The translations under genes and the position numbers were made by a program. From contig JAUSGZ010000014.1 of NCBI GenBank assembly GCA_030648715.1, positions 1,055 through 65,054 of the forward strand: a stretch of DNA of 64,000 nucleotides. Reading direction: 5' to 3'. Source of the DNA: a bacterium (GTDB lineage: Bacteria; Patescibacteriota; Patescibacteriia; Buchananbacterales; GWA2-38-13). The notes below the pieces were generated by a model. That model was given only the letters and a program-made list of their open reading frames with translations. It was not told the DNA's origin and did not search any database. Positions 1 to 27,331 of the stretch are shown here, piece by piece; position 1 is the first letter of the stretch; every line of letters begins with the position of its first letter.

Positions 1-304
1 GCCAGGTGATGCGGTACGTGCTGCCACGAACCCACTGCTCACCGCCATTAGGGAAAGTGACGGTAATCGTCGGCGTCGGGGTAGCGGTTGGCGTCGGAGT
101 CGGCGTGGCCGTCGGCGTCGGTGTAGGTGTAGGTGTAGGTGTAGGTGTCGCCGTGGGCGTTGGGGTAGGTGTGCTATTGGTATTCCCGTTCGAGTTTGCC
201 GCCACGACCGAGCCGGCATACACGAACAGACCGAGCGCCACCGTAAAACAGAAAGCGCTCACCAGGAACGCGGTCACCCGCGAAATCGTCTGAGCCTGTT
301 TCAT
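1..304 (-). CDS. 5'-partial secreted/cell-surface protein with N-terminal signal peptide/TM and a Pro-Thr linker. It runs off the window start.
   Basis: Manual minus-strand translation from ATG (revcomp of 302-304) gives MKQAQTISRVTAFLVSAFCFTVALGLFVYAGSVVAANSNGNTNSTPTPTPTATPTPTPTPTPTPTATPTPT...ITVTFPNGGEQWVRGSTYRITW with no stop before position 1. The PT-linker is encoded by a GTNGGN hexanucleotide repeat. The plus-strand ORF 6..293 (GVGVAV...) is its antisense shadow. Confidence 0.6.
   Translation of the reverse strand, partial: MKQAQTISRVTAFLVSAFCFTVALGLFVYAGSVVAANSNGNTNSTPTPTPTATPTPTPTPTPTPTATPTPTPTATPTPTITVTFPNGGEQWVRGSTYRITW
52..178 (-). repeat. Tandem hexanucleotide (ggYgtN) repeat encoding the Pro-Thr linker of the partial surface protein
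   Basis: Direct reading: ggcgtcggggtagcggttggcgtcggagtcggcgtggccgtcggcgtcggtgtaggtgtaggtgtaggtgtaggtgtcgcc... Confidence 0.7.
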
Positions 305-591
305 AACTATCGAAATCCCGGCCCTCATGAGGCGCGGGGTAAATAAGTAAATTTAGGGCGAAATGTGAATACATATTAATTATATCACGACAAGCCATTA
401 TTGGCAAGAGGATAACATAAATATTTTGCTAAAATAAGACAATTTTATTCTCAAAAATAAAATCGCACCAAATTCAGTACTTATAAATATCAATAGAAAT
501 AGATGCTGGGGTGTGTATAAACCCCAATTACGAAAAGTACATTTTGGGAAACAAAAAATCAGCCGCCTGCCACTGCTGAGTTCTTCGCCAC

Positions 592-663
592 TGCGCCCAC
601 GAGGATTCGAACCTCGATCACCGGCTCCGGAGGCCGGTGCTCTATCCATTGAGCTATAGGCGC
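592..663 (-). tRNA. tRNA-Arg (anticodon CCG)
   Basis: Revcomp folds as a canonical 72-nt cloverleaf: GCGCCTA/TGGGCGC acceptor, GCTC-AATGGATA-GAGC D arm, CCGGC-CTCCGGA-GCCGG anticodon arm (loop C-U-CCG-G-A), CGAGG-TTCGAAT-CCTCG T arm, discriminator A. CCA is not encoded. Confidence 0.85.
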
Positions 664-849
664 AAAGGCAAAGAACCGTGCAAAACAACAATATCAATTT
701 CTCTCACCATAAACCCGGCAACTGGCGGGCAGGTATCCATTGTCCGCCCCAGGCGGATCCGCCTCGGGCGGAAGCTACAAGGGGGCGGGGAAAGGTGTGC
801 CGACAAACCGGTCTGGAAAGGGCGCGATGTTCGGAAAAAAAACGGCGGT

Positions 850-1476
850 TCAACGCTTGGGCAGCGACCCCGGTTTGGTGGAACGCTCTCCCAGTAATTT
901 CAACGCCGCGCGGATGACTGCCTCGCTGGAATCGTCGTCGAGCGGGATTTGCACGAGCGCACGCTGCACGTCTTGAGCGGAGAACCCAAGCGCCTGAAGG
1001 GCTTCGCTGGCTTCGGCATGGCCGCTCCGTGCGCCGTGCGCCGCGCCGGAACCGGCGGCCAGTTCTTCCAGCTTGCCGCGCAATCCGGCAACCAATGTCT
1101 CCGCCAGACGCTGGCTGACCCCGGCGTGCTCCACCAGGTATTCCGGCCGGCCGCCGGCCACGGCCTGGCGTAGCTGCAACGGCGTTACGACTTCCATCAC
1201 ATGGAGCGCCGAACGCGGACCGACGCGCTGCACCGTGATAAGCAGCTCGAACATCTGCAACTCGTCGCGGCTGGAAAAACCAAACAGCTCCTGGGCATCC
1301 TCGCGCACCTCCAGATGCGTGTAGAGCTGCAACTGAGCGCCGACCTTGGCCTGCCGCACAAAGGTGCCAGTCACCTCTACGCGGTAGCCGACCGCGCCCA
1401 CCTCCACGACCAGGTGGTTGCCGCGCTTGAGGGGCGGGTGCACATAGGTGACCGTGCCACGCAGCGTTGCGATCAT
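850..1476 (-). CDS. ruvA: Holliday junction DNA helicase subunit RuvA
   Basis: 208 aa. The N-terminal MIATLRGTV...VEVGAVGYRVEV OB-fold signature, helix-hairpin-helix region and C-terminal domain layout are typical of RuvA. Confidence 0.85.
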   Translation of the reverse strand: MIATLRGTVTYVHPPLKRGNHLVVEVGAVGYRVEVTGTFVRQAKVGAQLQLYTHLEVREDAQELFGFSSRDELQMFELLITVQRVGPRSALHVMEVVTPLQLRQAVAGGRPEYLVEHAGVSQRLAETLVAGLRGKLEELAAGSGAAHGARSGHAEASEALQALGFSAQDVQRALVQIPLDDDSSEAVIRAALKLLGERSTKPGSLPKR

Positions 1477-1647
1477 AGGTGAAAGCGAATGCCGGCAGAA
1501 TGTCGCCGACGTGCCCCAACGTTAGCAAAAGCAAGCCAATTTGGCAACGGGAAATCTTGACAAACGGCGATTTTCCCAGTAGCGTTGGGGGAAGGTTTTT
1601 CGTACCTCGACAATCCACAATCCCACGCCACGAAAGGAGCGTGTTCC

Positions 1648-2787
1648 ATGTTGACCTTTACGGTTGAGCCGCGCAAAGTTTGGGTGCCTTACGGCGGCAA
1701 AAGCGTCCTGACCCACCCCGTCACCCACCTGCCCAAGAGCATCCTGGTCGCCCAAGGTACGGGCGAATTTTTCCTCCAGTACTGGGAGGAAGGAGAACGG
1801 CGCGGCGATAAGAAGCAACGCCGCTGGAGGAAATACCGCGACGTGTGGTCGCTGCACCGCGGGCTGAAGCTCGCCCGCTACGGCACGATCGTCCGCCGCC
1901 TCCCCACGCTGGAAGAGCTGCGCAGTCTGTGCAGCGGCGCCAACATCACGCTGAGCGCGGGCCGCGTCGCCCCCGAGGCGCTCGCCCAGGTCAAAACCGA
2001 CCTGCTGCGCGTGCTGGACACGCTGCGGCAGCCCCGCACCCACGCCCTCAAGGACGTCGTCGTCCAGATCGAGCTGGTCGTGCCGTTGCGCGACGCCAAG
2101 GGACGTCTGAACACCGGGGCGCTGGCCGCGCGGCTCGTGCCGGTCAAAAACCGGCTGTTCGTGGAGCGCGTCTCCGACATCGCCGAGTGGCTCGGCTACT
2201 ACGCCCACTGGGAACAGGACGTCGCGGTCCTGCTGCAATTGGCCGGGGGCTTTCTCCCGACGCTGGAACGAAGCATCGGCAACGCGGTCAGCCGCCTGGC
2301 CGATATTGCCGACGCCCCGGCGGCACTACTGCCCCTCGCGCGCGAACTTCGGCCGCATGCCGATTTCGTGGAGCAGCTGGTGCCATTCGGCGGCTGGACC
2401 AACTGGGCGCGCGCCTGCAGTGCGGACTTCCGCGCCACCATCAACGCATTGTTCGCCAATGACCGCGACGTCGCGCTGGCGGCCCTGCGACGGCTGGCAA
2501 CGGCAATCCGCCTCAAATGGCTGCAGGCCGACATCTCCGACCTGCTGCTGGAAATCCAGATGGACGCCCTGAACGGCGACTTGCAGGTCGACTGCTACCT
2601 GCGACGCCTGGAGGACCTGCTCTCCCGTCTCGCGACGCTCGATGACGCTCACCTGCGCACGCCGGTGGTTCCCACCCTCGCGGAAAAATTCCGCGCTACC
2701 ATCGCCACCCTGGGTTCGAAAGAACCCGACCGTGCCCGCGTGCGCAAGAGCCGCGACCACCTCCGCGTGGCCGTCGCTGCGCTCTGA
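1648..2787 (+). CDS. hypothetical protein (379 aa, soluble, Leu/Arg/Ala-rich, no recognisable motif)
   Basis: Long ORF on plus strand. The ATG at 1648 is preceded by RBS aaaggagcg (1633-1641). It is divergent from ruvA and convergent with the NIF3 gene. No Walker, HExxH or other motif was found. Confidence 0.55.
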   Translation: MLTFTVEPRKVWVPYGGKSVLTHPVTHLPKSILVAQGTGEFFLQYWEEGERRGDKKQRRWRKYRDVWSLHRGLKLARYGTIVRRLPTLEELRSLCSGANITLSAGRVAPEALAQVKTDLLRVLDTLRQPRTHALKDVVVQIELVVPLRDAKGRLNTGALAARLVPVKNRLFVERVSDIAEWLGYYAHWEQDVAVLLQLAGGFLPTLERSIGNAVSRLADIADAPAALLPLARELRPHADFVEQLVPFGGWTNWARACSADFRATINALFANDRDVALAALRRLATAIRLKWLQADISDLLLEIQMDALNGDLQVDCYLRRLEDLLSRLATLDDAHLRTPVVPTLAEKFRATIATLGSKEPDRARVRKSRDHLRVAVAAL

Positions 2788-2904
2788 ACGCCCCATCTGC
2801 TCTTCACCGCCAACGGCAATCGCCCCCACGATTGCCGCTTTTTTTATTTCCCACCTCCATTCATCCCGCCCGCTTGCGGGGCAATGCTTCATTTCTTCTG
2901 TCCA

Positions 2905-2932
2905 AAAAGCACGCCAGTTGGCGTGCTTTTCT
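2905..2932. terminator. bidirectional rho-independent terminator hairpin between convergent genes
   Basis: aaaagcacgcc-agtt-ggcgtgctttt: perfect stem flanked by A-run and T-run. Confidence 0.6.
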
Positions 2933-2947
2933 CTGCGATGGAAAATT

Positions 2948-3940
2948 TTAGCGGCGGCGTTTCGCGGGCTTGCTCGCCTTCGTACGGGTGGCAGCCTTGG
3001 CGCGGCTGACGCGGATGAGCCCGGCGCTGGGAATGATCTCCACGCCGCGGCGTTCCAGCTGGTCCAACATCAGGTTCATGCCGAGGGAATCGGACGACAT
3101 GTGGCCGGCGATGACCACGTTGATGTGGTACTTGGCCGCCTCTTTCTTGCGCTCCTTGTCCATGTGCATGCCGATGATGGTGCCAAACCCGTACTGCGAC
3201 ATCTTCTCGTAGATGCCGACCGCCCCTTCGGTACCGCCGGTGATGTCGGTCAGCACGATCTTGCCCGCCGACGATTCCGGGGTGCCGACCATGATGAACG
3301 GGCCCGACTTGCGCCTAATGGCTTCGCGGTACTCCGGCACGGTTTTGAGTGCGGCAATGATCTCCCCCAGTGTTTCGGGGTTGGCGCGCCGGATGACGCC
3401 ATCCAAAAATTTCGCGGCTTGGTTGTCGGTGCACGTGTGCGTGCACGCAAACCCGATGTCCAGCAACCGGGCGGCATCCACCGTACGGTGGTGGTTGGAC
3501 GCCGACACGCCGTGGGCAACCTCGGTGATGCGCTCGCGCATCAAGGACTCCGCGATGTTGATGGGCATGCCGTAGAGCGCCATCACCTCGGCCTGCAGGT
3601 GCATGACGTCGTGGAGATCGGCCAACCCTTCGCCCGCCGGGTGGTGGGCAATGACCAGGTCGCAGCCCAGTTGTTTGGCAATGATGAGCTCCGACGGGGT
3701 GATATCGATACCCGCGAGCACCTTACGCACGGGACGCCCGTGGTCGAAGAGCACGCGCGAATCCAGATAAGGGTTCACTGTGGCTTCCGGGTCCAGTTCC
3801 CACCGGTCGTTTTCCGGGGTGTGGTCGTACCGCGCCTGGGCGCGGGTGAGCACCTTGTCGACGGACTTTTGGCCGCGCAGGTCAGTCTGCCTGCCCAGCT
3901 GAATGGCCAGCTGGTAGATTTGCTTGATGGTCATTGGCAT
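2948..3940 (-). CDS. Nif3-family dinuclear metal centre protein (YbgI/YqfO-like, GTP cyclohydrolase 1 type 2 homolog)
   Basis: 330 aa. DLVIAHHP motif, metal-binding His/Glu pattern, and a split NIF3 fold with inserted domain. Confidence 0.75.
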   Translation of the reverse strand: MPMTIKQIYQLAIQLGRQTDLRGQKSVDKVLTRAQARYDHTPENDRWELDPEATVNPYLDSRVLFDHGRPVRKVLAGIDITPSELIIAKQLGCDLVIAHHPAGEGLADLHDVMHLQAEVMALYGMPINIAESLMRERITEVAHGVSASNHHRTVDAARLLDIGFACTHTCTDNQAAKFLDGVIRRANPETLGEIIAALKTVPEYREAIRRKSGPFIMVGTPESSAGKIVLTDITGGTEGAVGIYEKMSQYGFGTIIGMHMDKERKKEAAKYHINVVIAGHMSSDSLGMNLMLDQLERRGVEIIPSAGLIRVSRAKAATRTKASKPAKRRR

Positions 3941-3943
3941 AAA

Positions 3944-6913
3944 TTACACTTTGGAGATCCGCAGCAGAATTGCGCGGTCGTTCAGCGTCACCGGCTCTCC
4001 TCCCGTTCCGGTGGTAATCGTGAGGGCATTGGTCTTACGCAGCACCTCGTCGCGGTGCGACGTCAGTACGTCATCGAGTGCGCCGTCGTAGATGACGGCG
4101 ATCCGGTCGGCAACCGTCAGCGCAGCCGCCTTGCGCAGATTGTTGATGCACCGCACTAATTCCCGCGCCAACCCGGCAACCCGCAGCTGGTCGGTCATCG
4201 CGGTGTCCAGCGCCACGGTTGCGCCGGTCCGATACTCTAACACGTTCAATTCTTCTTTGACAATATCCTGCAGTTCCGCCCCGATCGCGGGGCCGGTAAC
4301 GGCGGCCAGCGGCTGGCGCACCTTCAGCCCGGCTGACATCCGCAACGCCAAGCCCTCGGTCACCACGGCCCGAGCTTTGGTCATCGCTTCCAGCGCGACC
4401 GGGTCAACAGACTCCCGCTTCGGCCAGTCTTCCAAATGCACCGAGGCGAGCTTGCCGCCGACTTCCCGGTACACATATTCAGCAAAGAACGGCGTAAACG
4501 GCGCTAAAAGTTTTGCGGTCTGCAGCAGCACATATCCCAGGGTGGCTATCGCCTCGGGGTCGCCGGCTTTGAAACGGTCGCGCGAACGGCGCACATACCA
4601 CGTGGACAGGTCGGTGATGAAGTCGCTCATCGGCCGCGCCGCTTCGATGACCCCGTACTGGGACAGCGCATCGGTGACAGTTCCGTTCAGTTGGGAAAGG
4701 CGAACGAGGATCCACTGGTCCAACACGTGATCCGTTCTCGGGGGAACCACCTGCGCCTTAGGCTTGGGTACATACAGCCGGTAGAACGCCACGACGTTTT
4801 GCAGGATGAGGAATACTTTTTTGACGACCTCGTCGATCTGCTTGAGGTCGAAGTTCTTGGCCTCGCCCGGCTGGTTGATGGTGTAGAGGTACCAACGCAG
4901 CGGGTCGGTGCCGAACTTGTTGATGACATCCCAGGGGTTGACGATGTTGCCCTTGGACTTGGACATCTTGCGGCCGCTGGCGTCGTTGATATGGCCGAGA
5001 CAAATGACATTCTTATAGCTTGGGCCCTTGCCCATGATGGTGGACACGGCCAAGAGCGTATAGAACCACCCGCGCGTCTGGTCAATGGCCTCGCAGATAT
5101 AATCGGCCGGATACTGTGCTCCGAGCTTGTAGCTTGTAGGTGGTAGCTTGTAGGTTTTTTTGGATTTCGTGGTTGATAATTTACCATCGATCAATTCTTC
5201 ATTCTCGAACGGATAATGGTACTGCGCGAACGGCATCGAGCCGGAATCCAGCCACACGTCCATGACTTCCGGCACGCGTCGCATGGTCCCGCCGCACGTT
5301 GCACACGGGAAAGTCACTGCGTCGATGAATGGCCGGTGCAGATCCTTCGGAATTTTCTTGGCCAAATTTTTCAGCTCTGCCACCGACCCCACCACCTGCC
5401 ACGCACCGCAGCCTTGCGGTAATTTTGATTTTTTAATTTTTAATTTTGAATCAATTTTCGAAATTTTAAATTTGAAATTCGAGTTTCCCGTCTGGCAACG
5501 CCAGACGGGCATCGGCGTTCCCCAGTACCGCTCGCGCGAGATCGCCCAGTCTTTGACGCCCGAGAGCCACTCTCCGAACCGCCCCTCCTTAATGTGCGCG
5601 GGCACCCAGGAGATCTGCTCGGCGTTCTTGAGCAGCTCATCTTTCACCTTGGTCATCGCGACGAACCACGAATCCTTGGCGTAGTACAGGAGCGGCGAAT
5701 CGCAGCGCCAGCAGAACGGATAGTCGTGTTCGTAAAGTACGGTCTGCATGAAAGCGCCATTGCGCTTGAGATGGTCGTAGATGAGTTCCTGCGTGTCTTT
5801 GGCCTTCACGTATTTTCCGGCCAAACCGGTAACGCGCGGTAAAAATTTTCCGTCCAGCCCGACGGTATGCTGTTTGGGCAGCCCAACCTGTTCGCCCAGC
5901 CGGTAGTCATCCTCGCCGTACATCACTGCGGTGTGGACAATCCCCGTACCATCGGTTGCCGTCACAAATTCGGCTGGTACGACGGTCCATGCTACGGTCT
6001 TGTCACCGACGTCAACCGCGCCGACAAACAACGGCTGGTAGTGAACACCCACAAGCTGCGTTCCAGGAACGGTTGCCAGTACGCGATGTTCCTGCGCTCC
6101 AAAGACTGCCGGTACCAACGCTTCAGCCAACACATAATGTACACCGCCGACCTCAATACGCACGTACTTTAATTTGGGGTGCACCGCCAGCGCGACGTTG
6201 CCCGGCAGCGTCCACGGGGTCGTGGTCCATGTCAGGATGAAATCGCCCTTCTGCACGAACTGGTTGCCAACGGTGACGCGGCATTTGACGTAGACGGAGT
6301 CTTCCTTGATCTTTCGGTACCCAAGCGCCACTTCATGAGATGACAGGGAAGTGCCACAGCGCGGGCAGTACGGCACTACCTTGTGGCCCTGATACAACAA
6401 CTCGCGCGCGTGCGCCTTCGCAATGACTTTCCACACGCTTTCAATGTAGTCATTCTCATACGTGATGTACGGATGCTTCAGGTCCAGCCAGAACCCGATA
6501 CGCTCGGTCAATTTTTCCCAGTCATCCTTGAACTGCCAGACCAACTCCCGGCACTCCGCGTTGAACTTGGCAATGCCGTACGTTTCAATCTCGGGTTTGG
6601 ACTTCAGGCTCAGCTTTTTTTCCACCTGCAACTCCACCGGCAAGCCGTGAGTGTCCCAGCCGGCCTTTCGTTCCACGTGGTAGCCCTGCATCGTGCGGAA
6701 GCGGACGATGATGTCCTTGAAGACACGTGCCAACACATGGTGCACCCCGGGGGCGGCGTTCGCCGTCGGCGGCCCTTCGTAGAACACAAAATTCCCTTTT
6801 GGCGATTTACGCGCCAAAGTTTTGGAAAAGATTTTTCCCTTCTGCCAGCGGGCAAGGATCATTTCTTCTTCTGCGGGCCAGGAATTTTTTTGCTTTTGTT
6901 CATCCATTGTCAT
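3944..6913 (-). CDS. ileS: isoleucyl-tRNA synthetase
   Basis: 989 aa. HIGH-region P-TANAAPGVHHV, KMSKSKGN, editing CP1 domain motifs, WAISRERYWGTP, DQTRGWFYTLL. It has a eukaryote/archaeal-like (type 2) architecture and contains two AT-rich Lys-rich insertions. Confidence 0.93.
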   Translation of the reverse strand: MTMDEQKQKNSWPAEEEMILARWQKGKIFSKTLARKSPKGNFVFYEGPPTANAAPGVHHVLARVFKDIIVRFRTMQGYHVERKAGWDTHGLPVELQVEKKLSLKSKPEIETYGIAKFNAECRELVWQFKDDWEKLTERIGFWLDLKHPYITYENDYIESVWKVIAKAHARELLYQGHKVVPYCPRCGTSLSSHEVALGYRKIKEDSVYVKCRVTVGNQFVQKGDFILTWTTTPWTLPGNVALAVHPKLKYVRIEVGGVHYVLAEALVPAVFGAQEHRVLATVPGTQLVGVHYQPLFVGAVDVGDKTVAWTVVPAEFVTATDGTGIVHTAVMYGEDDYRLGEQVGLPKQHTVGLDGKFLPRVTGLAGKYVKAKDTQELIYDHLKRNGAFMQTVLYEHDYPFCWRCDSPLLYYAKDSWFVAMTKVKDELLKNAEQISWVPAHIKEGRFGEWLSGVKDWAISRERYWGTPMPVWRCQTGNSNFKFKISKIDSKLKIKKSKLPQGCGAWQVVGSVAELKNLAKKIPKDLHRPFIDAVTFPCATCGGTMRRVPEVMDVWLDSGSMPFAQYHYPFENEELIDGKLSTTKSKKTYKLPPTSYKLGAQYPADYICEAIDQTRGWFYTLLAVSTIMGKGPSYKNVICLGHINDASGRKMSKSKGNIVNPWDVINKFGTDPLRWYLYTINQPGEAKNFDLKQIDEVVKKVFLILQNVVAFYRLYVPKPKAQVVPPRTDHVLDQWILVRLSQLNGTVTDALSQYGVIEAARPMSDFITDLSTWYVRRSRDRFKAGDPEAIATLGYVLLQTAKLLAPFTPFFAEYVYREVGGKLASVHLEDWPKRESVDPVALEAMTKARAVVTEGLALRMSAGLKVRQPLAAVTGPAIGAELQDIVKEELNVLEYRTGATVALDTAMTDQLRVAGLARELVRCINNLRKAAALTVADRIAVIYDGALDDVLTSHRDEVLRKTNALTITTGTGGEPVTLNDRAILLRISKV

Positions 6914-6961
6914 AGGCGTACTATTTGCTTACGTTAGCACCGATTTTGACGCGGCGTCAAC

Positions 6962-6990
6962 CAAAAAACCGCCGTTGGGCGGTTTTCCCG
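6962..6990 (-). terminator. rho-independent terminator downstream of ferredoxin gene
   Basis: aaaaaaccgcc-gttg-ggcggtttt hairpin. On the minus strand it is followed by a T-run. Confidence 0.55.
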
Positions 6991-7005
6991 AGCCCGGAAT
7001 GGCGG

Positions 7006-7221
7006 CTATTTCCCCGGATTTTCTTCGTGCTCTTCCCAGGCGATCGCGGCGACCGGGCACATTTCAATGGCATCGGCGATCTTGTCCTTATACTTTTCGT
7101 AGTCTATGCCGTCCATCACGGTCGCCTTGCCTTCGGCATCCACTTTGAATACCTCGGGACAGACTGACTCGCAAGCGGCGGCCCCGATGCACTTGGCGCG
7201 GTCCACGACGGGCTTTTTCAT
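7006..7221 (-). CDS. monocluster [4Fe-4S]/[3Fe-4S] ferredoxin
   Basis: 71 aa. Cys pattern CIGAAACESVCP ... EMCP (Cx5Cx3CP...CP) is typical of small single-cluster ferredoxins. Confidence 0.8.
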   Translation of the reverse strand: MKKPVVDRAKCIGAAACESVCPEVFKVDAEGKATVMDGIDYEKYKDKIADAIEMCPVAAIAWEEHEENPGK

Positions 7222-7255
7222 AATGTAAATATTGTAGGACGGAACCCTGCCCCGG

Positions 7256-7630
7256 TCAAACGTCGCCGCTGACCCACTGTTTTACCTTTTCCACCAAAGC
7301 CTTGGGGGTCACGCTGGTTTTCACGACGAAATCCTTGGCCCCGAGCTTTAACCCCTTTTCGATCTCTTCTTTCTGGCTCAAATTGGAAAAAATGATGACT
7401 GGAATTTTCTTGGTGTCGGGGTCATTTTTGAGGTGCCGCAACGCTTCGTAGCCATCCACTTTTGGCATCAGAATATCCAGCAGGATCAGATCCACGGGGT
7501 TACCCTTGGCCAATAAGTAGCCGGCGTCGCCGTTGACGGCCGTGAACAGCGAAAACCCCGCCTGCTCCAACGCCAACCGGTACAGCTCCAGCAAACTTGG
7601 CTCGTCCTCAACGATAAGGATCTTCTTCAT
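7256..7630 (-). CDS. stand-alone response-regulator receiver domain protein (CheY-like)
   Basis: 124 aa. MKKILIVEDE...DLILLDILMP(K)VDG...FSNL...KLGA.DFVVK carries the conserved acidic pocket and phospho-acceptor Asp. There is no output domain. Confidence 0.85.
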   Translation of the reverse strand: MKKILIVEDEPSLLELYRLALEQAGFSLFTAVNGDAGYLLAKGNPVDLILLDILMPKVDGYEALRHLKNDPDTKKIPVIIFSNLSQKEEIEKGLKLGAKDFVVKTSVTPKALVEKVKQWVSGDV

Positions 7631-7690
7631 ACTTATTTATAGATGAGTACCTATATACTACGTACACACTTGCTTTGCAGTCAAACTTGA

Positions 7691-8728
7691 CTACGAAAAC
7701 CACTTCAAAAGGCGAATGATGCCCATTTTTGCTGCCTGACGATGTGCCGAGACGTCCTGACGCGAACGTATCTGTTCTCGATGGTCATGATAATATTTAT
7801 ACGCGCGCCAAAGCATTTCCTCGTTCGAGCAGGTTGGCTGCCACTGCAATTCGCGCTTGATCTTTTCAGTATTAAAGGAAAAATCTTCGGCGATCATCCG
7901 ATACTGATACGGACCAAGAGGTGATACGCCAAGGGTATACGCCAGCCGCATCAAAAAAAGCGTCGGCACGCGCGGGAGCGATGTGATCCTCGCTTTCGTT
8001 CCTGCGCGCGAGATGACGGATTGGTACACTTCGCGTAATGATTTCACGCCGTCTGCACCGATATGAAAAGTTGCGGAATGGTGGTACTCCAGTGCCCGTA
8101 GGCAAGCGGCTGCCAAATCCTTGGCGTAGATGAACTGGTACTTATTCTTACCGCCGTCAACCACCCAGACCTTACGGCCCTCGTCAATGAATTCGAATAG
8201 GATCGCCAAAAGCCCAAGCCGTCCCTCATCAATGATGGTTGGGCAGCGAAATGTAATGATGTGAAGATCTCGTTCATACTCGGATAATATTTTTTCTGCT
8301 ACCAGCTTTGACCGACCGTAAATTTCTGCCGGATCCGGAGCATCCTCTTCACGGACCGGCCGGTCAAATGATCTACCCCAGAGGCAATTGGAAGAAATAA
8401 AGATCAACTTGGGCACCCGAAAATCACGGCAGCATTCCGCCACGTTCCTCGTCCCGTCGACATTCGACGTCCACAAAAAATCTCTATCTTTCGCGGCGTG
8501 CGCGAGCACGGCTGCGCAATGGAAAACCGCGGTGTAACCCTCCGGTTGGAATAAACGACGCAGGGAAACGCGGTCGCGGATGTCTCCCTGGATCGGCGTC
8601 AACCGAGGATGCTGCTGCGCATGTGGCACGAGGTCGATGCTATCGCAAGAAAATCCTGATGCCAGGAGATGGTCAATCAAGATCCCGCCGAAAAAACCCG
8701 CTCCTCCAGTTACTAAAATTTTTTTCAT
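7691..8728 (-). CDS. NAD-dependent epimerase/dehydratase (extended SDR)
   Basis: 345 aa. N-terminal Rossmann VTGGAGFFGGIL and the SDR catalytic core. It is the last gene of the operon with two GT-C genes. Confidence 0.8.
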   Translation of the reverse strand: MKKILVTGGAGFFGGILIDHLLASGFSCDSIDLVPHAQQHPRLTPIQGDIRDRVSLRRLFQPEGYTAVFHCAAVLAHAAKDRDFLWTSNVDGTRNVAECCRDFRVPKLIFISSNCLWGRSFDRPVREEDAPDPAEIYGRSKLVAEKILSEYERDLHIITFRCPTIIDEGRLGLLAILFEFIDEGRKVWVVDGGKNKYQFIYAKDLAAACLRALEYHHSATFHIGADGVKSLREVYQSVISRAGTKARITSLPRVPTLFLMRLAYTLGVSPLGPYQYRMIAEDFSFNTEKIKRELQWQPTCSNEEMLWRAYKYYHDHREQIRSRQDVSAHRQAAKMGIIRLLKWFS

Positions 8729-8736
8729 ATACCAAG

Positions 8737-10383
8737 CTAGCGTTTTAACCCGACATCAATGTGGTCCAATGGCTGAAATACGCAGGTATGATACCGCTGC
8801 AGTTCTATCGTACCATACCGCCAATCAGGATGATGCGGGATGACGAACACTTCTCCGACCCGGCAGTATTGGCGCAAGGCGTTGTCCAAAAGACGATCGG
8901 GATCATAATGAACCGCCCCACCGGCGCGGACATACCACACGGTGTCGAAACCGCGCAGTTGCGCGCCAAGATCATGCAGGGATTCTTGGTTGATCCAGTG
9001 CAAACCGACCCGGCGGGCATAAGCAAGGGGAAGATCAATACCCTCGACCGACTCTTTGGGGATGGGAAGACGGACCATTGGGAGTCCCCCGCCGTAGTAG
9101 TAAGAAAGCAACACTGAATCTTCATAGTGAGCGACGATCGCGGTGCCGGGTTGCGGAGGAATTGTCCGCATGACGGAATGTACGACCGGCCAGTAAGCAT
9201 CCTGGTAGTGCAGCTTTGTGGTCAGGACTACGAAAACGTTGGCGCTCATCACGGCAGCAATCAACGCGACGAAAAACCACTGCTGCGCCCAGTGCCGCGT
9301 AAGATGCGAGATACCACGGAATATCAGGAGACAAAAGAACGGCAGCGTGTAGGAAACATATCGACTGACCGGGGCCCGCAAGCTCCAAAGGATGGTGAGG
9401 GGAACAAGAACGATGATCGCCAATGCGGCCGCCCGCAGATCGGTCACCCGCAATCCGATGGCAAGGGTGCGGCGGGAGAAACGGAATTGGAAGAACACCA
9501 GTCCCAGCGCGGTGATGACCAGGGTGATCACGGCGGAGGAGATCCACACGGGTACATCTGCCACATACCAGACGAGCAACTCAAACGGCATCCGCCAAAA
9601 AATGTAAAAATTGATCGGGATATTATCCAGCCAACGCTGAGAGGGCGCCAAATACCAGTGGAGCACTCGATCGTACAGCACCACGAACTGCGGCACATAC
9701 GCCGCAACGATCGCGACCTGACCGGCAACCCAAGGAATGATCGACCCTTCAACACGATGCTGGCGGCGCCAGAGCAACCACACGACATTGTGGGCAAAGA
9801 CAAAAAACCAGAACGGGTAGTGGATATAGGTCCCGACGATCCCGGCCACCACATACCAGCCATACCACGACCAGGACCGAGGGTAACGGAAGATCTGTGA
9901 AAGCAGCCACGTGAGAATAACCCCGGCTGCGACCAACAGAGCGTACATCCGCGTCTCCGTGGCGAAAAAAATCGTCGATTGTGCTATCCAAAAAAGCACG
10001 GTTGCCCGAAAAGCGACCGTGGCGTCGAACAGCTGCCGACCGAAAAAGTACACCAGCAACGCCGCGACAATCGTGGTCAGCAGCGATAATACTCCCGTCG
10101 CGATCTCTCCAACCCCGAAGGCAACGGTCCAGGCCTTGAGCAGAAAGTAATACCCGGGAGGAAACCAATCATTGGCGACAAATGCCAACATCCGAGCCCA
10201 TGGTTGCTGGACGTAATAGACGGTATTGGCCTCATCGAACCAATACGGCGCCGGCAGCTGGGTCAGCATGATCACTCCCGCAACCGCGCACGCCACCCCC
10301 GCGAACCATACCTCTGGACGCCAAAAGCGGAACGCTTTCAAGCGTGACCCTACTGCTTGGCGCAATGTTTGGAGGACTGGCAT
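8737..10383 (-). CDS. GT-C fold glycosyltransferase, ArnT/PMT-like (GT39/GT83 family), polytopic membrane protein
   Basis: 548 aa, about 12 TM helices. The first extracytoplasmic loop contains WFDEANTVYY (DE motif of PMT/ArnT enzymes). It overlaps the upstream gene by 34 nt. Confidence 0.75.
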   Translation of the reverse strand: MPVLQTLRQAVGSRLKAFRFWRPEVWFAGVACAVAGVIMLTQLPAPYWFDEANTVYYVQQPWARMLAFVANDWFPPGYYFLLKAWTVAFGVGEIATGVLSLLTTIVAALLVYFFGRQLFDATVAFRATVLFWIAQSTIFFATETRMYALLVAAGVILTWLLSQIFRYPRSWSWYGWYVVAGIVGTYIHYPFWFFVFAHNVVWLLWRRQHRVEGSIIPWVAGQVAIVAAYVPQFVVLYDRVLHWYLAPSQRWLDNIPINFYIFWRMPFELLVWYVADVPVWISSAVITLVITALGLVFFQFRFSRRTLAIGLRVTDLRAAALAIIVLVPLTILWSLRAPVSRYVSYTLPFFCLLIFRGISHLTRHWAQQWFFVALIAAVMSANVFVVLTTKLHYQDAYWPVVHSVMRTIPPQPGTAIVAHYEDSVLLSYYYGGGLPMVRLPIPKESVEGIDLPLAYARRVGLHWINQESLHDLGAQLRGFDTVWYVRAGGAVHYDPDRLLDNALRQYCRVGEVFVIPHHPDWRYGTIELQRYHTCVFQPLDHIDVGLKR

Positions 10384-11651
10384 AACAGGCTCGAATAGCC
10401 CAGGGAGGGAGAAGATAATGAGAGAAAGATCTGGCGAGGGGATACTTGGCGTACGACGGGAAGTATGCGCCCATCTGTTCCGCGGAATGCGTAGTAGAGG
10501 TTGAGGATGGCCAATACACCTGCCAATAACCCTCCCACCATCCGCAGACGGAGCTGATCCGACATCCTCGATATCGCTACCGCCATCGCGACGATGAACA
10601 TCGGACCAAAAACCACATAGTACTTTGGCACACCGACGTCAAAACCGGCCAACAGGAATATCGGTAGCGCGCCAACAACCAGCAGATAGGAAACCGGAGT
10701 GTTGGGTGGAGTGAACGTAACGGTCAGCCAACGTCGCTCGCGATGAAAGGTAAAGAGCAGTGGAAAGGACGTCAAAATGATGAGGATACCAACGCGTAAG
10801 TTGACACTCCAAGAAGCCGTCCAGGTCGGATAAAGATAGCCGTGCATCACGGAAAAGGGAAACTGCCGGGAAGGTACGGCGGGAGTCGCGGATGATATTC
10901 CTTCGGTAATGAACGCAGGAAGCAGACGAAGGTAATGGACGGCCACTGGCGCCACAACCATAAAAAGCAGGGCCTCAAGACGCCACCAGCGCTGCCATTG
11001 GACGGGCGTGATCCTCCACCGTCGCTGCAAGAGGGAAATGGCGGCAGTTTGGGAGAACAACACTAATAGTAGACTCGGGTTGGTGTAGACACCAAGAGCT
11101 GCCGTTGCCCCATACCACCATAAGGACGACGAACGCCCGATCTGAAAATATTGATACAGCGCAAAATTCGTTGCCGTTACCAGCACAATACCGAGCATAA
11201 GTGGGCTGGTTTCCGTAGAATACTGTATCCCAAGGTAACTCGACCAAAACAAGATGATGGAGAGAAGACCGCAAGCAGCCCCTCCCATGCGCTTCGCGAG
11301 TGCATACATCAGCCCGATGCCAACCAGCGTAATAACCAACGAAAGCCCTGCCGTGGCAAGCGGTGTGCTGCCGAAAAGACGCACCCAAAAACCTAGAAGT
11401 AAGCGATAGACCGGGGACGACTGCGCCGGATCCAAAAAGATGGGGGCGCCGCCGCTCAGCAGGCGAGCGCTCTTGGCCACTATTATCTCTTCGTCGGGCG
11501 TATACGGGAGCGCCGCCTGTCGCCAACGCACAACGATACCGCCGATGACCGCTGCACCCAGGAAAAGCCAAAATAGCGGCCGTTGCCAGTCTCGCCGCGT
11601 TTCCGATAACGGTGTTGCCGGATGTCCGAGGTCGCTCATACAGGTCAACAA
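10350..11651 (-). CDS. GT-C fold glycosyltransferase, ArnT/PMT-like membrane protein
   Basis: 433 aa, polytopic. Loop-1 YTPDEEIIVAKSARL (DE motif) with a hydrophobic core. Confidence 0.7.
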   Translation of the reverse strand: MLTCMSDLGHPATPLSETRRDWQRPLFWLFLGAAVIGGIVVRWRQAALPYTPDEEIIVAKSARLLSGGAPIFLDPAQSSPVYRLLLGFWVRLFGSTPLATAGLSLVITLVGIGLMYALAKRMGGAACGLLSIILFWSSYLGIQYSTETSPLMLGIVLVTATNFALYQYFQIGRSSSLWWYGATAALGVYTNPSLLLVLFSQTAAISLLQRRWRITPVQWQRWWRLEALLFMVVAPVAVHYLRLLPAFITEGISSATPAVPSRQFPFSVMHGYLYPTWTASWSVNLRVGILIILTSFPLLFTFHRERRWLTVTFTPPNTPVSYLLVVGALPIFLLAGFDVGVPKYYVVFGPMFIVAMAVAISRMSDQLRLRMVGGLLAGVLAILNLYYAFRGTDGRILPVVRQVSPRQIFLSLSSPSLGYSSLLCQSSKHCAKQ

Positions 11652-11822
11652 TGTGGCGTCAGCTGCGGCAATTCCTATCGCGTGGACCCACTCCTGCTGC
11701 CAAAATTAACCGCGCGGCATATTGCGGCCAACGATGTTGTCATATATAATTTTTTGGCAGGAATTTTCTTGGCTACGAGCGAGGTACCCGGACCTATGCG
11801 GCAAATGATACAATAAAGTAGC

Positions 11823-13259
11823 ATGGACAAAGCTCCGTATCAAGAAAAGTTACGCGTGCTCATCATCGGCGCAGGACCGGCCGGCTTGACGGCGGCGCTG
11901 GAAGGCGTGCGCCGTGGCTACTCGGTCACCGTATTGGAAGCCAGCGATCAATCGGGCGGACTGGCAAAGACCGTTTTCCACGACGGCTATGGCTTTGATA
12001 TCGGGGGCCACCGCTTTTTCACGAAATTCCCGCAGGTCGAACAGTGGTGGCACGAGGTGCTGCGGGACGACTTCATCACCGTCCGCCGGCAATCGCGCAT
12101 CTACTACCGCGGAAGATTTTTCGACTACCCGTTGCGGCCGCTCAATGCACTTGCCGGTCTGGGTCCAGGGATGAGCCTGCGTCTGGCGGGCAGCTACCTG
12201 TGGGCGCGCCTTCACCCACGTCGCCCAGAAACAACGTTTGAAGATTGGGTATCCAACCGTTTTGGCCGCCTGCTGTTCTCCATTTTTTTCAAAAGCTACA
12301 CGGAAAAAGTCTGGGGTATTCCCTGCAATGAGCTCTCGGCCGATTGGGCTGCGCAACGCATCAAATCACTATCCTTGAGCAAGGCGGTACTGAACGCCAT
12401 CCGACCTCAACGCGGAAGCATTACCACGCTCATCGAAGAATTTCAATACCCGCGGCGCGGCCCGGGCATGCTATGGGAGAGAGTGGTACAACTCGTGGAG
12501 GATGCGGGCGGCCGCGTGCTGCTGCAATCGCCGGTACAGCATCTGGTGGCGTTGCCCGGTCACGGATTCCGCGTAACAGCGATGGTAGACGGGAAGACAC
12601 AAGAACTTTTTGCCGATGCGGTCATCTCGACAATGCCCCTGCCAGACCTGGTAGCGATGCTGGAACCCGCGCCGCCCGCCGATGTGCGCGCCGCCGCCGA
12701 GCGGCTCACCTTTCGTGATTTTCTGAGTGTCTTGCTGGTGCTGAAAACAACCGCGCTCTTCCCCGATAACTGGATCTATATCCATGATCCGTCCATTCGG
12801 GCCAGTCGCGTCCAAAACTACGGGAACTGGAGCGCCGCGATGGTACCCCAACCAGGAACGAGCGGCATCGGCGTCGAATACCACTGCCAGCAAGGCGACC
12901 AACTGTGGACCAAAACCGACGACCAGCTCATTGCGCTAGCGACGGAAGAACTCTCGCGGCTGCGGCTCGCGGAACCGGCACAGGTGCAGCGCGGCTGGGT
13001 CATCCGAGAACCCTACGCGTACCCCCGCTATACCGACGACTACCAACAGCACGTGAAGACCATCGCACGTCATCTCGCAAGCATTCCGAGGCTACAGACC
13101 GTCGGCCGCGCCGGAATGCACAGATATAACAACCAGGATCACTCGATGCTCACGGCGATGCTGGCGATCGACAATCTCAGCGGAGCCCGCCATGACCTCT
13201 GGGCGGTGAACGCCGATGATGAGTACCACGAAATAAAAATATCAAAGCCGCGGCACTAA
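11823..13259 (+). CDS. FAD-dependent oxidoreductase, UDP-galactopyranose mutase-like / amine-oxidase fold
   Basis: 478 aa. GxGxxG VLIIGAGPAGLTAA, GGHRFF, and YTEKVWG (matches the YTEKQWG motif of Glf). It is embedded between GT-C genes. Confidence 0.7.
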   Translation: MDKAPYQEKLRVLIIGAGPAGLTAALEGVRRGYSVTVLEASDQSGGLAKTVFHDGYGFDIGGHRFFTKFPQVEQWWHEVLRDDFITVRRQSRIYYRGRFFDYPLRPLNALAGLGPGMSLRLAGSYLWARLHPRRPETTFEDWVSNRFGRLLFSIFFKSYTEKVWGIPCNELSADWAAQRIKSLSLSKAVLNAIRPQRGSITTLIEEFQYPRRGPGMLWERVVQLVEDAGGRVLLQSPVQHLVALPGHGFRVTAMVDGKTQELFADAVISTMPLPDLVAMLEPAPPADVRAAAERLTFRDFLSVLLVLKTTALFPDNWIYIHDPSIRASRVQNYGNWSAAMVPQPGTSGIGVEYHCQQGDQLWTKTDDQLIALATEELSRLRLAEPAQVQRGWVIREPYAYPRYTDDYQQHVKTIARHLASIPRLQTVGRAGMHRYNNQDHSMLTAMLAIDNLSGARHDLWAVNADDEYHEIKISKPRH

Positions 13260-13273
13260 CATTCGTTCCATTG

Positions 13274-14920
13274 CTAGCTTCCCGCCATCGGCCGGCAGAG
13301 GCCGGCCAGACGGTCGAACCGAAAGAGGAAGATCTTCAACGGCTGCGGCAACGGCACGTACGTCGGCGTCCACCCGTCCGCGATGAGCGCGACGTCCAGA
13401 TCGAATAAGCTGGGAGTGACCGACACCACCCACAGCCGGTCGTACCGTGAAAGATCGGGTGGCAACCGGTAGTCGCGGTACGGAATGTGCGGGTGCGTCA
13501 GCAGGTAGCCTTCTACCGGCGTCTGCCGCGGCGATCCCGACGCGATGGTCAGCTGTCGGGAGCCGATTGTTTCCGGCACGAGGCTGCCGACCGTCTGGCC
13601 GCCGCGGTAGTAATAGTCCAAGAGGATCCGGTAGTTGGGCCAGAATCCCACGATGAGCTCGCGTCCGCCGCGCTCTTGGCCCTCAATAACCCGCGCGACC
13701 GCCGGAAACTGGTGCTGCGGGTCCCACGTAGCGTCATTGGTAAAATACTGCGGACCGTTCATCAGCACGTAGGCGCAAACCGCCACCGCCACGACGGCCA
13801 GGTGCGGAAATCCCAAGCGTACGCGCGCGAACAGCTCCTGCCCGGCCAACGCGATGGCGATGGCAACGGCCGGCAGGACGAACAGCACGTGGCGCTGGTA
13901 GTACCAGGAGTAACGGCCCGACATCGGTGAAACCAGGAACAGCAGCAACGGCGCAACCACCCACATGCCCACCAGCACCAGCCGCTGCCAGCGGTACGCG
14001 GCCGAGGTGTTCCCCTGCCGAACGCGCGCGAACGCCGTAACCGCTGCGAAACCGGCCCCGACGACCAGGAGCAGTAGTGTTGAACCCTGGAGCAGCCGGC
14101 CGAACGCATCGACAGGCCATTTACCCGGGAAAAAGAGAAAATTCATCACAACGTCCAATGGCAGAAAATTTTCCGGCTGCGTCAGCGCCGACAGCGGCGT
14201 CAAGTCGCCGACCGTGCGGTACTGCGCGAAAAGGTTCTTCGCCAGTACGGGCACCCACGGCAGATAGGCAGCCACAATCCCTCCCAATGCCACGGAAAGC
14301 TGCGTTCTCCCTTTTTTAGCGCGCGGGACAAACACCATGGCCGCCAGCACCTGGCTGCCCAGGACAAACCAGTACGCGTAGTGTGTGTACAGCCCGGCAA
14401 CCGCGAGTATGGTAAAACCGGTTATGGCCGCCCGCGAACCGGTTGTTTGCCACCGCGAGAGCGCAAACCACCCGCCGATCGCTATCGCAGTCAGCAGCAT
14501 GTACGGGCGCGCCTCGCGGGAAAACTCCACGAAGAACGGCGAGAGCGCCATCGCCATTGCTGCGACCGACGCCGTTTTGCGATCGAACCACTCCCGAGCT
14601 AACCCGTACAGCAGCCCGACGGACAGCAGCGCGAACAGCAGAGAGAAACCGCGCAGCGCGAACGCCGAGTCGCCCACTGCGCGGACCCACCCCGCCATCA
14701 TGAGGTAATAGAGCGGGGGGTGGTTCTCGTACTGCGCCAGGTACGCGGTCATCTCCACGGGATTTTCCGAATGCCGGTACACGCTCCAGCTCAACACCTC
14801 GTCGAACCACAATGGTTCGCTGCGCAGGTGCGGCAGCCCCAACAAAAAAGTAACCGCGAGCGCGGCAATCAGTCCCATCGGCAATTTCTTAGTCATGGGA
14901 AAACGCAACAACTTGAGCAT
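13274..14920 (-). CDS. GT-C fold glycosyltransferase, ArnT/PMT-like membrane protein
   Basis: 548 aa, polytopic. Loop-1 LWFDEVLSWSVY (DE motif). It is a third paralog of the same family. Confidence 0.75.
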   Translation of the reverse strand: MLKLLRFPMTKKLPMGLIAALAVTFLLGLPHLRSEPLWFDEVLSWSVYRHSENPVEMTAYLAQYENHPPLYYLMMAGWVRAVGDSAFALRGFSLLFALLSVGLLYGLAREWFDRKTASVAAMAMALSPFFVEFSREARPYMLLTAIAIGGWFALSRWQTTGSRAAITGFTILAVAGLYTHYAYWFVLGSQVLAAMVFVPRAKKGRTQLSVALGGIVAAYLPWVPVLAKNLFAQYRTVGDLTPLSALTQPENFLPLDVVMNFLFFPGKWPVDAFGRLLQGSTLLLLVVGAGFAAVTAFARVRQGNTSAAYRWQRLVLVGMWVVAPLLLFLVSPMSGRYSWYYQRHVLFVLPAVAIAIALAGQELFARVRLGFPHLAVVAVAVCAYVLMNGPQYFTNDATWDPQHQFPAVARVIEGQERGGRELIVGFWPNYRILLDYYYRGGQTVGSLVPETIGSRQLTIASGSPRQTPVEGYLLTHPHIPYRDYRLPPDLSRYDRLWVVSVTPSLFDLDVALIADGWTPTYVPLPQPLKIFLFRFDRLAGLCRPMAGS

Positions 14921-15038
14921 TCAAGCACCGCGAACCGATGTGCAAACTGCCGTGTCATGATGCCGTAGAAGCTTCGCCAATATTTCCGATTCCACATATT
15001 ACCGACTACCTACTACCCCACTACTTACTATTCTCACA

Positions 15039-24930: not shown

Positions 24931-25928
24931 TAGTTGATATTAAACCACGCAACGGTTCTATCCATCGCCTTCTCAAAACTTAAAAAACCATTATCGAGAT
25001 GCTGTTTCATTGAGCTGGAATCAACCTCTAGGCTGGACGTTACCATTGAAAGGCTCGACCGAGTAATCATTGGTCTTGTCTTTATGCCTAACAATCGGTG
25101 ATAATTCTCAAACAATAAGGAGGCGACATAGCCTAAGACGTACGGAATATTCACGACGACGGCTTTTGCATTACAGGCTGGTTTAAAAAATGTCACGAAC
25201 TGTCGCCACGTAATCTTAGCATCGTCGCAGAGATTCATTTTGGTGCCGCTGGGTAATCCATCGATGCGATCTAAAACATTCCTGACGAAAAAGGCAAAAT
25301 TCTCAACGTACAATAACGGTATATATGTATCCTTCTTACCAGGCAGTAAAAGAAAACCTTGCTTTAGGTTGTGGATAATTTCTGGAATCAAGGTTTTATC
25401 ACCTGGACCGAACAGCCACGCTGGCCGAAGAATAACAACCTTAAAATATTCACGACTATCAACGGCGGCTAACTCGCCAAGAAGTTTCGTTTTTTGGTAG
25501 GGATGGCCCGAAGAAGTGTAAGGAGTAGTTTCGGAAAGTACCGTGTGTTTCCCGTGCTTATAGTCCAAAACATCAATGGTACTTATGTAGAGGAAATTTT
25601 TAATCGCAGCTAGACGCGATGCCTCCAGTAACCGACGCGTCCCATTAACGTTAACCTCATAAAAAATTTCCTTGGGACCCCAATCAGATACGACAGCCGC
25701 TGAATGGATAACATGCTCTATCTCATTTTTCTCTAAAAGGTCAAACAGGGCTTCTGCACTGCTCAAATCACCTTGTAACAGGGTAATCCTCGGATTATTG
25801 ACGAATAATTGAGTGTGTACACTAATTTTTCTTACCAAGGCGTATACTTGGTAACCATGCAAAGCCAACACTTTGCATATAGAGCGCCCCGCAAACCCAT
25901 TCGCTCCGGTTACTAAAACTTTTGCCAC
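24906..25928 (-). CDS. NAD(P)-dependent epimerase/dehydratase-family reductase (extended SDR)
   Basis: 340 aa. VLVTGANGFAGRSI Rossmann, YQKTK (YxxxK). It lies in a lower-GC region and is co-directional with the AOS gene and the histidine kinase (25-bp overlap with the kinase start). Confidence 0.75.
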   Translation of the reverse strand: MAKVLVTGANGFAGRSICKVLALHGYQVYALVRKISVHTQLFVNNPRITLLQGDLSSAEALFDLLEKNEIEHVIHSAAVVSDWGPKEIFYEVNVNGTRRLLEASRLAAIKNFLYISTIDVLDYKHGKHTVLSETTPYTSSGHPYQKTKLLGELAAVDSREYFKVVILRPAWLFGPGDKTLIPEIIHNLKQGFLLLPGKKDTYIPLLYVENFAFFVRNVLDRIDGLPSGTKMNLCDDAKITWRQFVTFFKPACNAKAVVVNIPYVLGYVASLLFENYHRLLGIKTRPMITRSSLSMVTSSLEVDSSSMKQHLDNGFLSFEKAMDRTVAWFNINYCLRKEVH

Positions 25929-25939
25929 GTAGGTGTTCG

Positions 25940-27160: not shown

Positions 27161-27331
27161 TATTACGAGTTATCAACCACACAACATTATACCGCTTTTG
27201 GCAAGGGAAAACAAAAAAACCGGCGTGGGTCGGGTATCTACGCGGAGTAAAAAAATGAACGGATAACTCTAATTGCGGCTACCAGCTATTTCTAGTATAG
27301 TTATATTATCCCGACAAGAACTCAGGATTGT

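Follow-up and report, generated by a model that had tools for sequence, protein, structure and literature searches.

Low-complexity insertions rich in lysine and asparagine occur in conserved proteins of Plasmodium and other AT-rich eukaryotes, and the Rickettsia palindromic elements (RPEs), which are dispersed, palindromic sequences of 100-150 bp present in many copies, are found in frame within coding genes. In quasi-palindrome template switching, an imperfect inverted repeat is perfected by copying one arm from the other. Heptameric simple-sequence repeats (SSRs) are over-represented in bacteria and mostly intergenic, and it has been proposed that the polymerase footprint favours slippage by 7 nt (PMC4692102). 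Here we describe two stretches of extra codons, referred to as inserts 1 and 2, in the minus-strand ileS gene of a Parcubacterium, a member of the Patescibacteria or candidate phyla radiation (CPR). The gene is located on a stretch of 64,000 nucleotides (positions 1,055 to 65,054 of contig JAUSGZ010000014.1, assembly GCA_030648715.1), the whole of which is called the window. It is likely that both inserts are expansion segments peculiar to their lineage, built by the tandem multiplication of 7-nt units in a type-2 isoleucyl-tRNA synthetase (IleRS) that is essential and otherwise ordinary. The array structure can be read directly from the DNA, and it is from this structure that we infer the multiplication.

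The two segments had been noticed in a preliminary description of the sequence, which quoted NSNFKFKISKIDSKLKIKKSKL and KLSTTKSKKTYKLPPTSYKL. Both are indeed present, at ~5421-5488 and ~5120-5185, and in frame, and the alignment to relatives and to solved structures of type-2 enzymes (IleRS2) agrees that they are insertions at the places named, the extra residues being T475-Q500 for insert 1 and about L579-G598 for insert 2 (Table 1). The site near PLW-GSVAEL that had been given for insert 1 is correct, and could be refined, as the insert exactly separates the two cysteines of a C-x2-C zinc knuckle. For insert 1, Tandem Repeats Finder (TRF) reported a period of 7 with 8.6 copies at 69% match, the inner 4.6 copies matching at 80%. 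For insert 2, the same program reported 4.3 copies of the 7-nt unit AGCTTGT at 82% match, as well as a 14-nt unit repeated 1.9 times at 100%, which bears out the direct repeat that had been pointed out in this segment. The self-identity at a lag of 7 nt was 0.63 for insert 1 and 0.56 for insert 2, and none of 20,000 shuffles attained either value. Both inserts thus contain at least three head-to-tail copies of a heptanucleotide beyond chance, and repeat slippage, one of the origins suggested earlier, remains the best explanation for these period-7 tandem arrays. As insert 1 is decayed, its heptamer origin leans on the periodicity and on the cleaner arrays of its relatives.

Insert 1 has a GC content of 19% (21% at third codon positions), as compared to 58% (75% at third codon positions) in the remainder of ileS. 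The lowest-GC stretch of 60 nt in the entire window (10%) starts at 5420, within this insert, and all 8 of the lysine codons in insert 1 are AAA, while 26 AAA and 39 AAG codons are used elsewhere in the gene (p=0.0014). Insert 2 is mildly AT-rich, with 41% GC. The previously described drop from more than 60% to less than 25% GC therefore holds for insert 1, but not for insert 2, and the gene average of 58% is below the figure given for the surroundings. The low GC content of insert 1 is explained by one AT-rich 7-mer (AAATTTN) that was copied 8-9 times and not by alien DNA. The view that the segments are foreign, whether as a mobile element or as DNA of unrelated origin, found no support. Neither insert has a second copy in the window, and terminal inverted repeats or a target duplication are absent, which argues against an RPE-like element or one resembling a miniature inverted-repeat transposable element. 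Outside the window, the matches of insert 1 were all of low complexity and fell in other heptamer arrays rich in AT, so that it was rejected as a copy of a dispersed element. A mini-intein (at least ~130 aa, with an N-terminal Cys/Ser and a C-terminal His-Asn followed by Cys/Ser/Thr) was rejected as well, since the inserts are low-complexity sequences of 26 and 20 aa that lack these motifs. What the inserts have in common with RPEs is that extra in-frame DNA is tolerated on the surface of an essential protein, but they differ from them by their internal tandem 7-mer and by the lack of dispersed copies and terminal repeats. They share with the Plasmodium-type insertions the hydrophilic and unstructured nature of the loops, the link to repeat slippage, the variability between relatives and the AT-richness. 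However, the present case concerns a bacterium with a genome of ~59% GC, and the repeat unit is 7 nt long rather than a multiple of three.

In the mechanism that we propose, each insert would have arisen by tandem multiplication of a 7-nt unit. Because such a unit shifts the frame in an essential gene, only additions in multiples of 3 nt would survive, and the smallest surviving step would be three units, corresponding to 21 nt or 7 aa. Translation of the unit in each of the three frames would yield a hydrophilic peptide of low complexity. A 7-mer translated through three frames has a period of 7 aa, and this results in peptides like RIKNQESRIK.

Arrays at the knuckle site were also present in related loci, namely GAAGCAG x4.1 (100% match) in L001 and L002, AGAATCA x4.6 (100%) in L004 and L005, GGAATCA x4.6 in L006, AAATACC x4.4 (100%) in L007, AATCAAG x5.3 in L009, AAGTTAA x4.7 in L091, and a 14-nt unit in L003. 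These arrays fall in alignment columns that are left empty by most orthologs. Among 117 related IleRS, the knuckle reads C-x2-C in 88 and C-x8..40-C in 19, and the loop at the site of insert 2 is long in 9. In a neighbour-joining tree, inserts at each site appear in at least 4 separate clades, and lineages with the plain C-x2-C are nested among the insert-bearers. The knuckle insert of protein P0090 is exactly 7 aa shorter than that of P0059, which equals three units (21 nt). A non-triplet repeat, normally the hallmark of an on/off switch, would here be a routine source of in-frame peptide additions to essential enzymes in several CPR lineages. If this pattern survives a census, it would help to explain many of the lineage-specific loops in CPR proteins, provide a simple DNA signature for such loops, and offer a natural system in which hairpins and slippage create new protein sequence.

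Three further observations were made in the ileS genes of relatives. At the knuckle of the Buchananbacteria locus L010 (2155-2223), which has 39% GC, a GC-rich piece of 69 nt is nested between two AATCTCA half arrays, the mirror image of the situation in the window; its fold has a z-score of -2.6 relative to shuffles, and the examined loci contain no second copy. The ileS gene encoding P0059 (L009 1629-1663, 1778-1807 and 2489-2524; relatives P0077 and P0090) carries the AATYAAG family, with the peptide ELRIK, at three sites, at one of which the array replaces existing sequence so that the length is unchanged compared to outgroups. Lastly, an AATTTTC unit, encoding the peptide KFSI(S/F)NFQFSK, is present at one C-terminal ileS site in both an Azambacterium (L016 6513-6542) and a Moranbacterium (L020 3363-3392).

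The upstream edge of insert 1 forms a perfect hairpin (Table 1), the 3' arm of which is the start of the insert and, at the same time, an inverted copy (reverse complement) of the conserved P-V-W codons. Stems are likewise perfect in L003 (11 bp), L004 (12 bp, with P-I-W paired with Q-I-G) and L006 (9 bp), where they are maintained by compensatory changes; the stem in the window measures 10 bp. QIG was seen only together with PIW, in three clades. Over 7 sequences, 92% of the cells are paired and 3 pairs are altered on both sides. The covariation score was 0.317 versus 0.154 for shuffled alignments (attained by 0 of 500), and slid controls paired at 48% or less. Insert-free genes possess only the inverted repeat CTGG...CCAG, and all clade-A arrays begin 0-7 nt from the 3' arm of the hairpin. 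The hairpin probably marks the insertion hotspot. We envisage that the 4-bp inverted repeat CTGG...CCAG, already held by the conserved P-V/I-W-x-C-Q codons, would be extended to a perfect hairpin of 9-12 bp by a snap-back or quasi-palindrome template switch, which would account for the recurrent 'Q-T/I-G' start of the inserts. Replication would then be expected to stall and misalign at the base of the hairpin, 0-7 nt from the start of the array. A quasi-palindrome template switch fits both the reverse-complement P-V/I-W start of insert 1 and the joint change of the arms. Unlike in the usual form of this mutagenesis, the resulting sequence has become fixed within a coding region in different species and adjoins a repeat array, and selection on the stem is possible. 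Long hairpins are not a general companion of heptamer arrays, as stems beside arrays other than those at the clade-A knuckle did not differ from random controls.

Both inserts are situated in the peripheral CP3 subdomain, where insert 1 opens the hairpin tip of the zinc knuckle and insert 2 lengthens the loop ahead of the FPADxI strand, at the junction of CP3 and the second Rossmann half. The topology of CP3 is variable among IleRS, a zinc motif being present in the enzyme of Thermus thermophilus and absent from those of Candida albicans and Staphylococcus aureus (PMC7191050). The subdomain and the four cysteines of the T. thermophilus motif (PMC7191050; PDB 1ILE) are common to the window IleRS. 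However, the first pair, which is C-x2-C in T. thermophilus, is converted to C-x28-C by insert 1, whereas the C537/C540 pair is unaltered. All four cysteines of the two pairs of this putative zinc site are present and conserved, and a C-x2-C zinc knuckle can apparently take a loop of 15-40 residues between its cysteines. An AlphaFold2 model built on 108 sequences had a mean predicted local distance difference test (pLDDT) score of 90.1 and a predicted template modelling score of 0.83. Values of pLDDT below 50 were confined to residues 1-9, 477-497 and 584-593, the two internal segments being the inserts. The model thus predicts an intact fold in which both inserts form disordered loops, in line with the earlier proposal that they lie in surface loops. 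Most likely, the insert peptides are near-neutral and leave catalysis and zinc binding intact, because their sequence and length vary freely, nested lineages have lost them, and no structure is predicted for them. We consider the inserts to be genuine, tolerated loop additions.

The history of the two inserts was examined by comparison with the sister genome, 'Parcubacteria group bacterium Gr01-1014_31', the DNA of which is ~94% identical to positions 1-7615 of the window. The DNA of insert 2 is 100% identical in this genome (L001, L002) and absent from the next relatives. At the site of insert 1, the sister genome has a wholly different array, which cannot be aligned with that of the window and lies within a patch of ~200 nt of raised divergence. 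The 90 nt upstream of insert 1 are 81% identical to L001, and thus no closer to it than to relatives with 60-70% protein identity. A colinear alignment was obtained between the 3' half of insert 1 and the decayed array in L007, a relative of only 63% identity (25 of 32 nt; the score was attained by 15 of 2000 shuffles). This colinearity indicates that the AT-rich array of insert 1 is probably old. The inserts had been described as recent, which is true in a restricted sense only. The sites are not newly occupied, given the 19 of 117 IleRS with knuckle inserts, and insert 2 is shared with the sister; what is recent is the turnover of alleles at insert 1. One of the two sister lineages has probably exchanged its allele, and the pattern suggests the import of a homologous allele by recombination, with differential loss as the other possibility. 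In our reading, the array at this site turns over fast and can be swapped between relatives through homologous recombination. A second mosaic patch, in the part of ileS for the CP1 editing domain (~5940-6210 on the minus strand, residues ~235-325), is as divergent from the sister as from distant relatives; the corresponding segment of the sister genome is ~37 aa longer and not alignable.

These findings leave room for an alternative that we regard as possible, though clearly less probable than the explanation given above: homologous recombination of a short patch of ileS may have brought the insert in from a Parcubacterium richer in AT, the heptamer array having formed at the source. The fall in identity next to insert 1, within 7.6 kb that otherwise match L001 at ~94%, is what such an import would leave behind, and the colinear array of L007 belongs to a locus of 46% GC. 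Moreover, the arrays of L001, L004 and L006 share their length and register. However, the recipient of the transfer may have been L001. No sampled relative qualifies as a close donor for the flanks, similarity between low-complexity sequences is weak evidence, and an equally good fit is obtained if an ancestor had two neighbouring arrays, as L007 does, that were then differentially lost. Import would also leave the origin from a heptamer array in place.

If inserts 1 and 2 stem from tandem multiplication of heptamers, the question arises how common such arrays are. In 227 kb of non-duplicate Patescibacteria loci, TRF found 41 period-7 arrays of at least 3.5 copies among 54 arrays of any period, while a shuffled replicate of these loci contained 0.2. 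In 666 kb from other bacteria, fetched by the same query, there were 2 period-7 arrays, and arrays of other periods showed no enrichment. This amounts to a ~40-fold enrichment per base in the sampled Patescibacteria loci, which concerns both genic and intergenic DNA. Exact period-7 tracts numbered 46 in the Patescibacteria and 11 in the other bacteria, and tracts with periods of 5, 6 and 8 scale with sequence length. The arrays occur in ileS (at several sites), in other long open reading frames (ORFs) and in intergenic DNA, most of them in translated long ORFs. The perfect tracts fall into two length classes, 15-19 nt and 27-32 nt, with almost none of intermediate size. In the Azambacteria locus L016 (2882-6954), six GCGRCAN arrays lie within 4 kb in three ORFs that include ileS; each array is internally uniform, and the arrays differ from one another at one or two unit positions. 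The window itself has three period-7 arrays, two in ileS and one between genes (15000-15030), and a fixed-lag scan revealed no coding heptamer arrays in it besides those in ileS. A count of lag-7 repeats at the protein level over 120 IleRS was discarded, as it is dominated by conserved motifs and by the redundancy of homologs. The Patescibacteria arrays resemble the described heptameric SSRs, such as the cyanobacterial repeats, GGGAATC of Xanthomonas and GGGGA(T/C)T of Nostoc, in their 7-nt tandem unit, low copy number and lineage-specific families, and also in the occurrence of some inverted pairs, the variation between close relatives and polymerase slippage as the proposed cause (PMC4692102). 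The latter repeats are intergenic and often G-rich, whereas the Patescibacteria arrays are in frame and translated, in essential housekeeping genes and at recurring protein sites; the two ileS arrays of the window accordingly lack the intergenic location of the Xanthomonas and Nostoc cases. Our literature search found no paper that ties heptamer or other simple-sequence repeats to CPR/Patescibacteria or to in-frame arrays of essential genes, which is no proof of absence.

Several points weigh against the origin of the inserts by simple multiplication of heptamers. No expansion of an array was directly observed, and insert 1, with its match of only 69%, includes 10% indels. Neither reads nor a second assembly corroborate the allele of the window. 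The sampling of loci was focused on ileS, and some of the loci were fetched because they carry inserts. Period-7 arrays are absent from L093, a Patescibacteria locus of 23 kb that was picked without regard to repeats, and from L013, L017 and L021. The over-representation of period 7 in the lineage is consequently patchy, and the notion that all Patescibacteria have such arrays was dropped. Simple stepwise slippage explains neither the clustering of perfect tracts at 27-32 nt, even outside genes, nor the reuse of one unit family at many sites of one genome. In addition, the covariation in the hairpin could stem from selection on structure instead of a mutational process.

Tentatively, one might consider that some Patescibacteria lineages run a distinct heptamer-array process that goes beyond stepwise slippage and is perhaps sequence-specific. 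Signs of this are the preferred size of ~30 nt (~4.3 copies) in genic as well as intergenic DNA, the reuse of unit families per genome, the length-neutral overwriting of existing sequence, the recurrence at the same surface loops of essential proteins, and the covarying hairpin at the IleRS knuckle. If real, such a process would be a lineage-specific engine that remodels conserved CPR proteins. An unusual pair of arrays was seen in non-coding DNA of L010 (6032-6083 and 6092-6143), where two arrays of 7.6 copies (AAGTCAA and its complement) are inverted, 8 nt apart, and could pair into a long hairpin.

The inserts might also have a selected function. The lysine-rich loops would then add to the electrostatic grip on tRNA(Ile), as do segments rich in lysine that are appended to synthetases of eukaryotes, or they would contact a partner or the membrane, or the hairpin and the A-rich tract would act in the RNA, for example by causing a translational pause before the knuckle folds. 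We judge this to be unlikely. It is true that the knuckle inserts are basic and hydrophilic in most lineages, that the knuckle site is occupied in several clades, and that compensatory changes preserve the pairing of the hairpin. Furthermore, the CP2-CP3 linker just upstream lines the pocket for the tRNA 3'-end in yeast IleRS (PMC7955072), and insert 2 is unchanged between two genomes. However, the latter identity says little, because the surrounding stretch is ~97-100% identical anyway, and the need to translate a 7-mer in three frames while avoiding stop codons and hydrophobic stretches by itself leaves a basic, hydrophilic peptide. Between close relatives, the inserts vary freely in sequence, length and unit, P0005, P0007 and P0107 have a plain C-x2-C although they are nested among insert-bearers, and the AlphaFold2 model shows the inserts without structure.

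It is very unlikely that insert 1 represents an assembly artefact or chimera. In its favour is the lack of an independent copy of the exact allele: no database record matched the exact sequence of the window IleRS, and two scans of metagenome DNA (with the conserved right flank and with the degenerate pattern GCGxWQVVG) gave zero matches. A contig search returned, among the matches listed, mostly distant IleRS of at most 54% identity and no close relatives. Against an artefact, insert 1 is in frame and free of stops, a state retained by only 6% of its shuffles even when the length requirement is not counted, and its flanks are the expected conserved codons. Analogous arrays are present at the knuckle in at least 7-8 independent assemblies from different pipelines, and two assemblies of the sister genome, made independently, contain insert 2 unchanged. 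Least probable of all is a phase-variable contingency locus in which the non-triplet repeat toggles ileS by frameshift, since, although a 7-nt unit within an ORF is classic for such loci, ileS is essential and apparently a single gene in each examined locus, all alleles seen are in frame, and the sole length difference between relatives is exactly 21 nt.

Apart from the inserts, the window enzyme is an ordinary GVHH-type IleRS2 of a Parcubacterium. It contains the Pfam domains tRNA-synt_1, Anticodon_1 and DUF5915, and thus combines a class Ia core, with KMSKS at residues 649-653, with an anticodon-binding domain and a type-2 C-terminal region that lacks the type-1 zinc domain. Its top sequence match in PDB is the IleRS2 of Priestia megaterium (E=7e-234), T. 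thermophilus 1ILE also being among the best. Foldseek aligned it to IleRS2 structures with template modelling scores of 0.81-0.82, the best matches being 8c8w and 8c8v, and IleRS1 structures scored far lower. The class I signature reads G-V-H-H (residues 56-59; window 6737-6748, minus strand), as in the GVHH mutant 8c8w and in contrast to HVGH in wild-type 8c8u, which places the enzyme in the subclass with HXGH swapped to GXHH. H59 is found in all of 108 aligned IleRS from Patescibacteria, and G56 and H58 each occur in at least 90%. The swapped GXHH motif marks an IleRS2 subclass linked to mupirocin hyper-resistance (PMC10485003). The nearest protein among 5.8 billion is the IleRS of the sister genome (86-90% identity), and all good matches are from Patescibacteria. 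The coordinates of the features are compiled in Table 1.

Table 1. Features of the ileS gene and its inserts, and one further heptamer array, with positions in the window.
Feature	Position	Strand	Basis
ileS, type-2 isoleucyl-tRNA synthetase, 989 aa	3944..6913	minus	ORF list, Pfam, PDB sequence match, Foldseek
Insert 1: TGNSNFKFKISKIDSKLKIKKSKLPQ, 26 additional codons in the C-Q-G-C zinc knuckle, flanked by Q474 and G501	5414..5491	minus	alignment to relatives and IleRS2 structures
Insert 2: ~20 extra codons LSTTKSKKTYKLPPTSYKLG, loop between HYPFEN and QYPADYI	5120..5179	minus	alignment to relatives and IleRS2 structures
Decayed heptanucleotide array, core of insert 1; unit ~AAATTTN in gene sense, TAATTTT on plus strand	5420..5479	minus	TRF
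Heptanucleotide array in insert 2; CTACAAG in gene sense, AGCTTGT on plus strand	5124..5153	minus	TRF
Perfect 10-bp hairpin CCCGTCTGGC-gtt-GCCAGACGGG, codons P-V-W-R-C-Q-T-G	5487..5509	minus	inverted-repeat search; local fold z=-4.7
Cys473 codon, first zinc-knuckle ligand, equivalent to residue 461 of T. thermophilus IleRS (1ILE)	5495..5497	minus	invariant in 108 sequences
Cys502 codon, second zinc-knuckle ligand, 28 residues after Cys473	5408..5410	minus	conserved in at least 90% of sequences
Cys537 and Cys540 codons (C-A-T-C), partner half of the CP3 zinc site	5294..5305	minus	invariant
Second short GC hairpin ACCGCA-gcct-TGCGGT, other edge of insert 1	5405..5420	.	fold
Third period-7 array, TACCTAC x4.3, 76% match, intergenic between argS-like ORF and next gene	15000-15030	plus	TRF

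With regard to signals at the nucleic acid level, Rfam gave no credible RNA family at the insert region, the sole sub-threshold match being rteR (27 bits versus a gathering score of 72, E=0.4), and a promoter scan of this region was empty. The hairpin at 5405-5420, together with the T-rich array on the plus strand, resembles an intrinsic terminator antisense to ileS. However, the number of terminator-like sites (3 versus 1.2 expected) is not significantly above the shuffled count, and this hairpin, which was not seen in relatives, may be incidental.

The host is an uncultured bacterium of groundwater type. Synteny with the sister genome is lost upstream of ileS, where a comparison of window 7615-13281 with L002 1384-9299 gave a single matching segment of 85% identity, and the sister genome has a run of PMT_2 glycosyltransferase genes upstream of its ileS. 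Two islands of 42-47% GC (~24000-28000 and ~36000-38000) interrupt the window of ~59% GC and hold several AT-rich spots. At the edge of the window (68-172), there is a long array based on the hexamer CGTCGG, with 15.5 copies and higher-order periods of 24 and 42, and similar arrays are located near dockerin/EF-hand-type genes in the sister genome.

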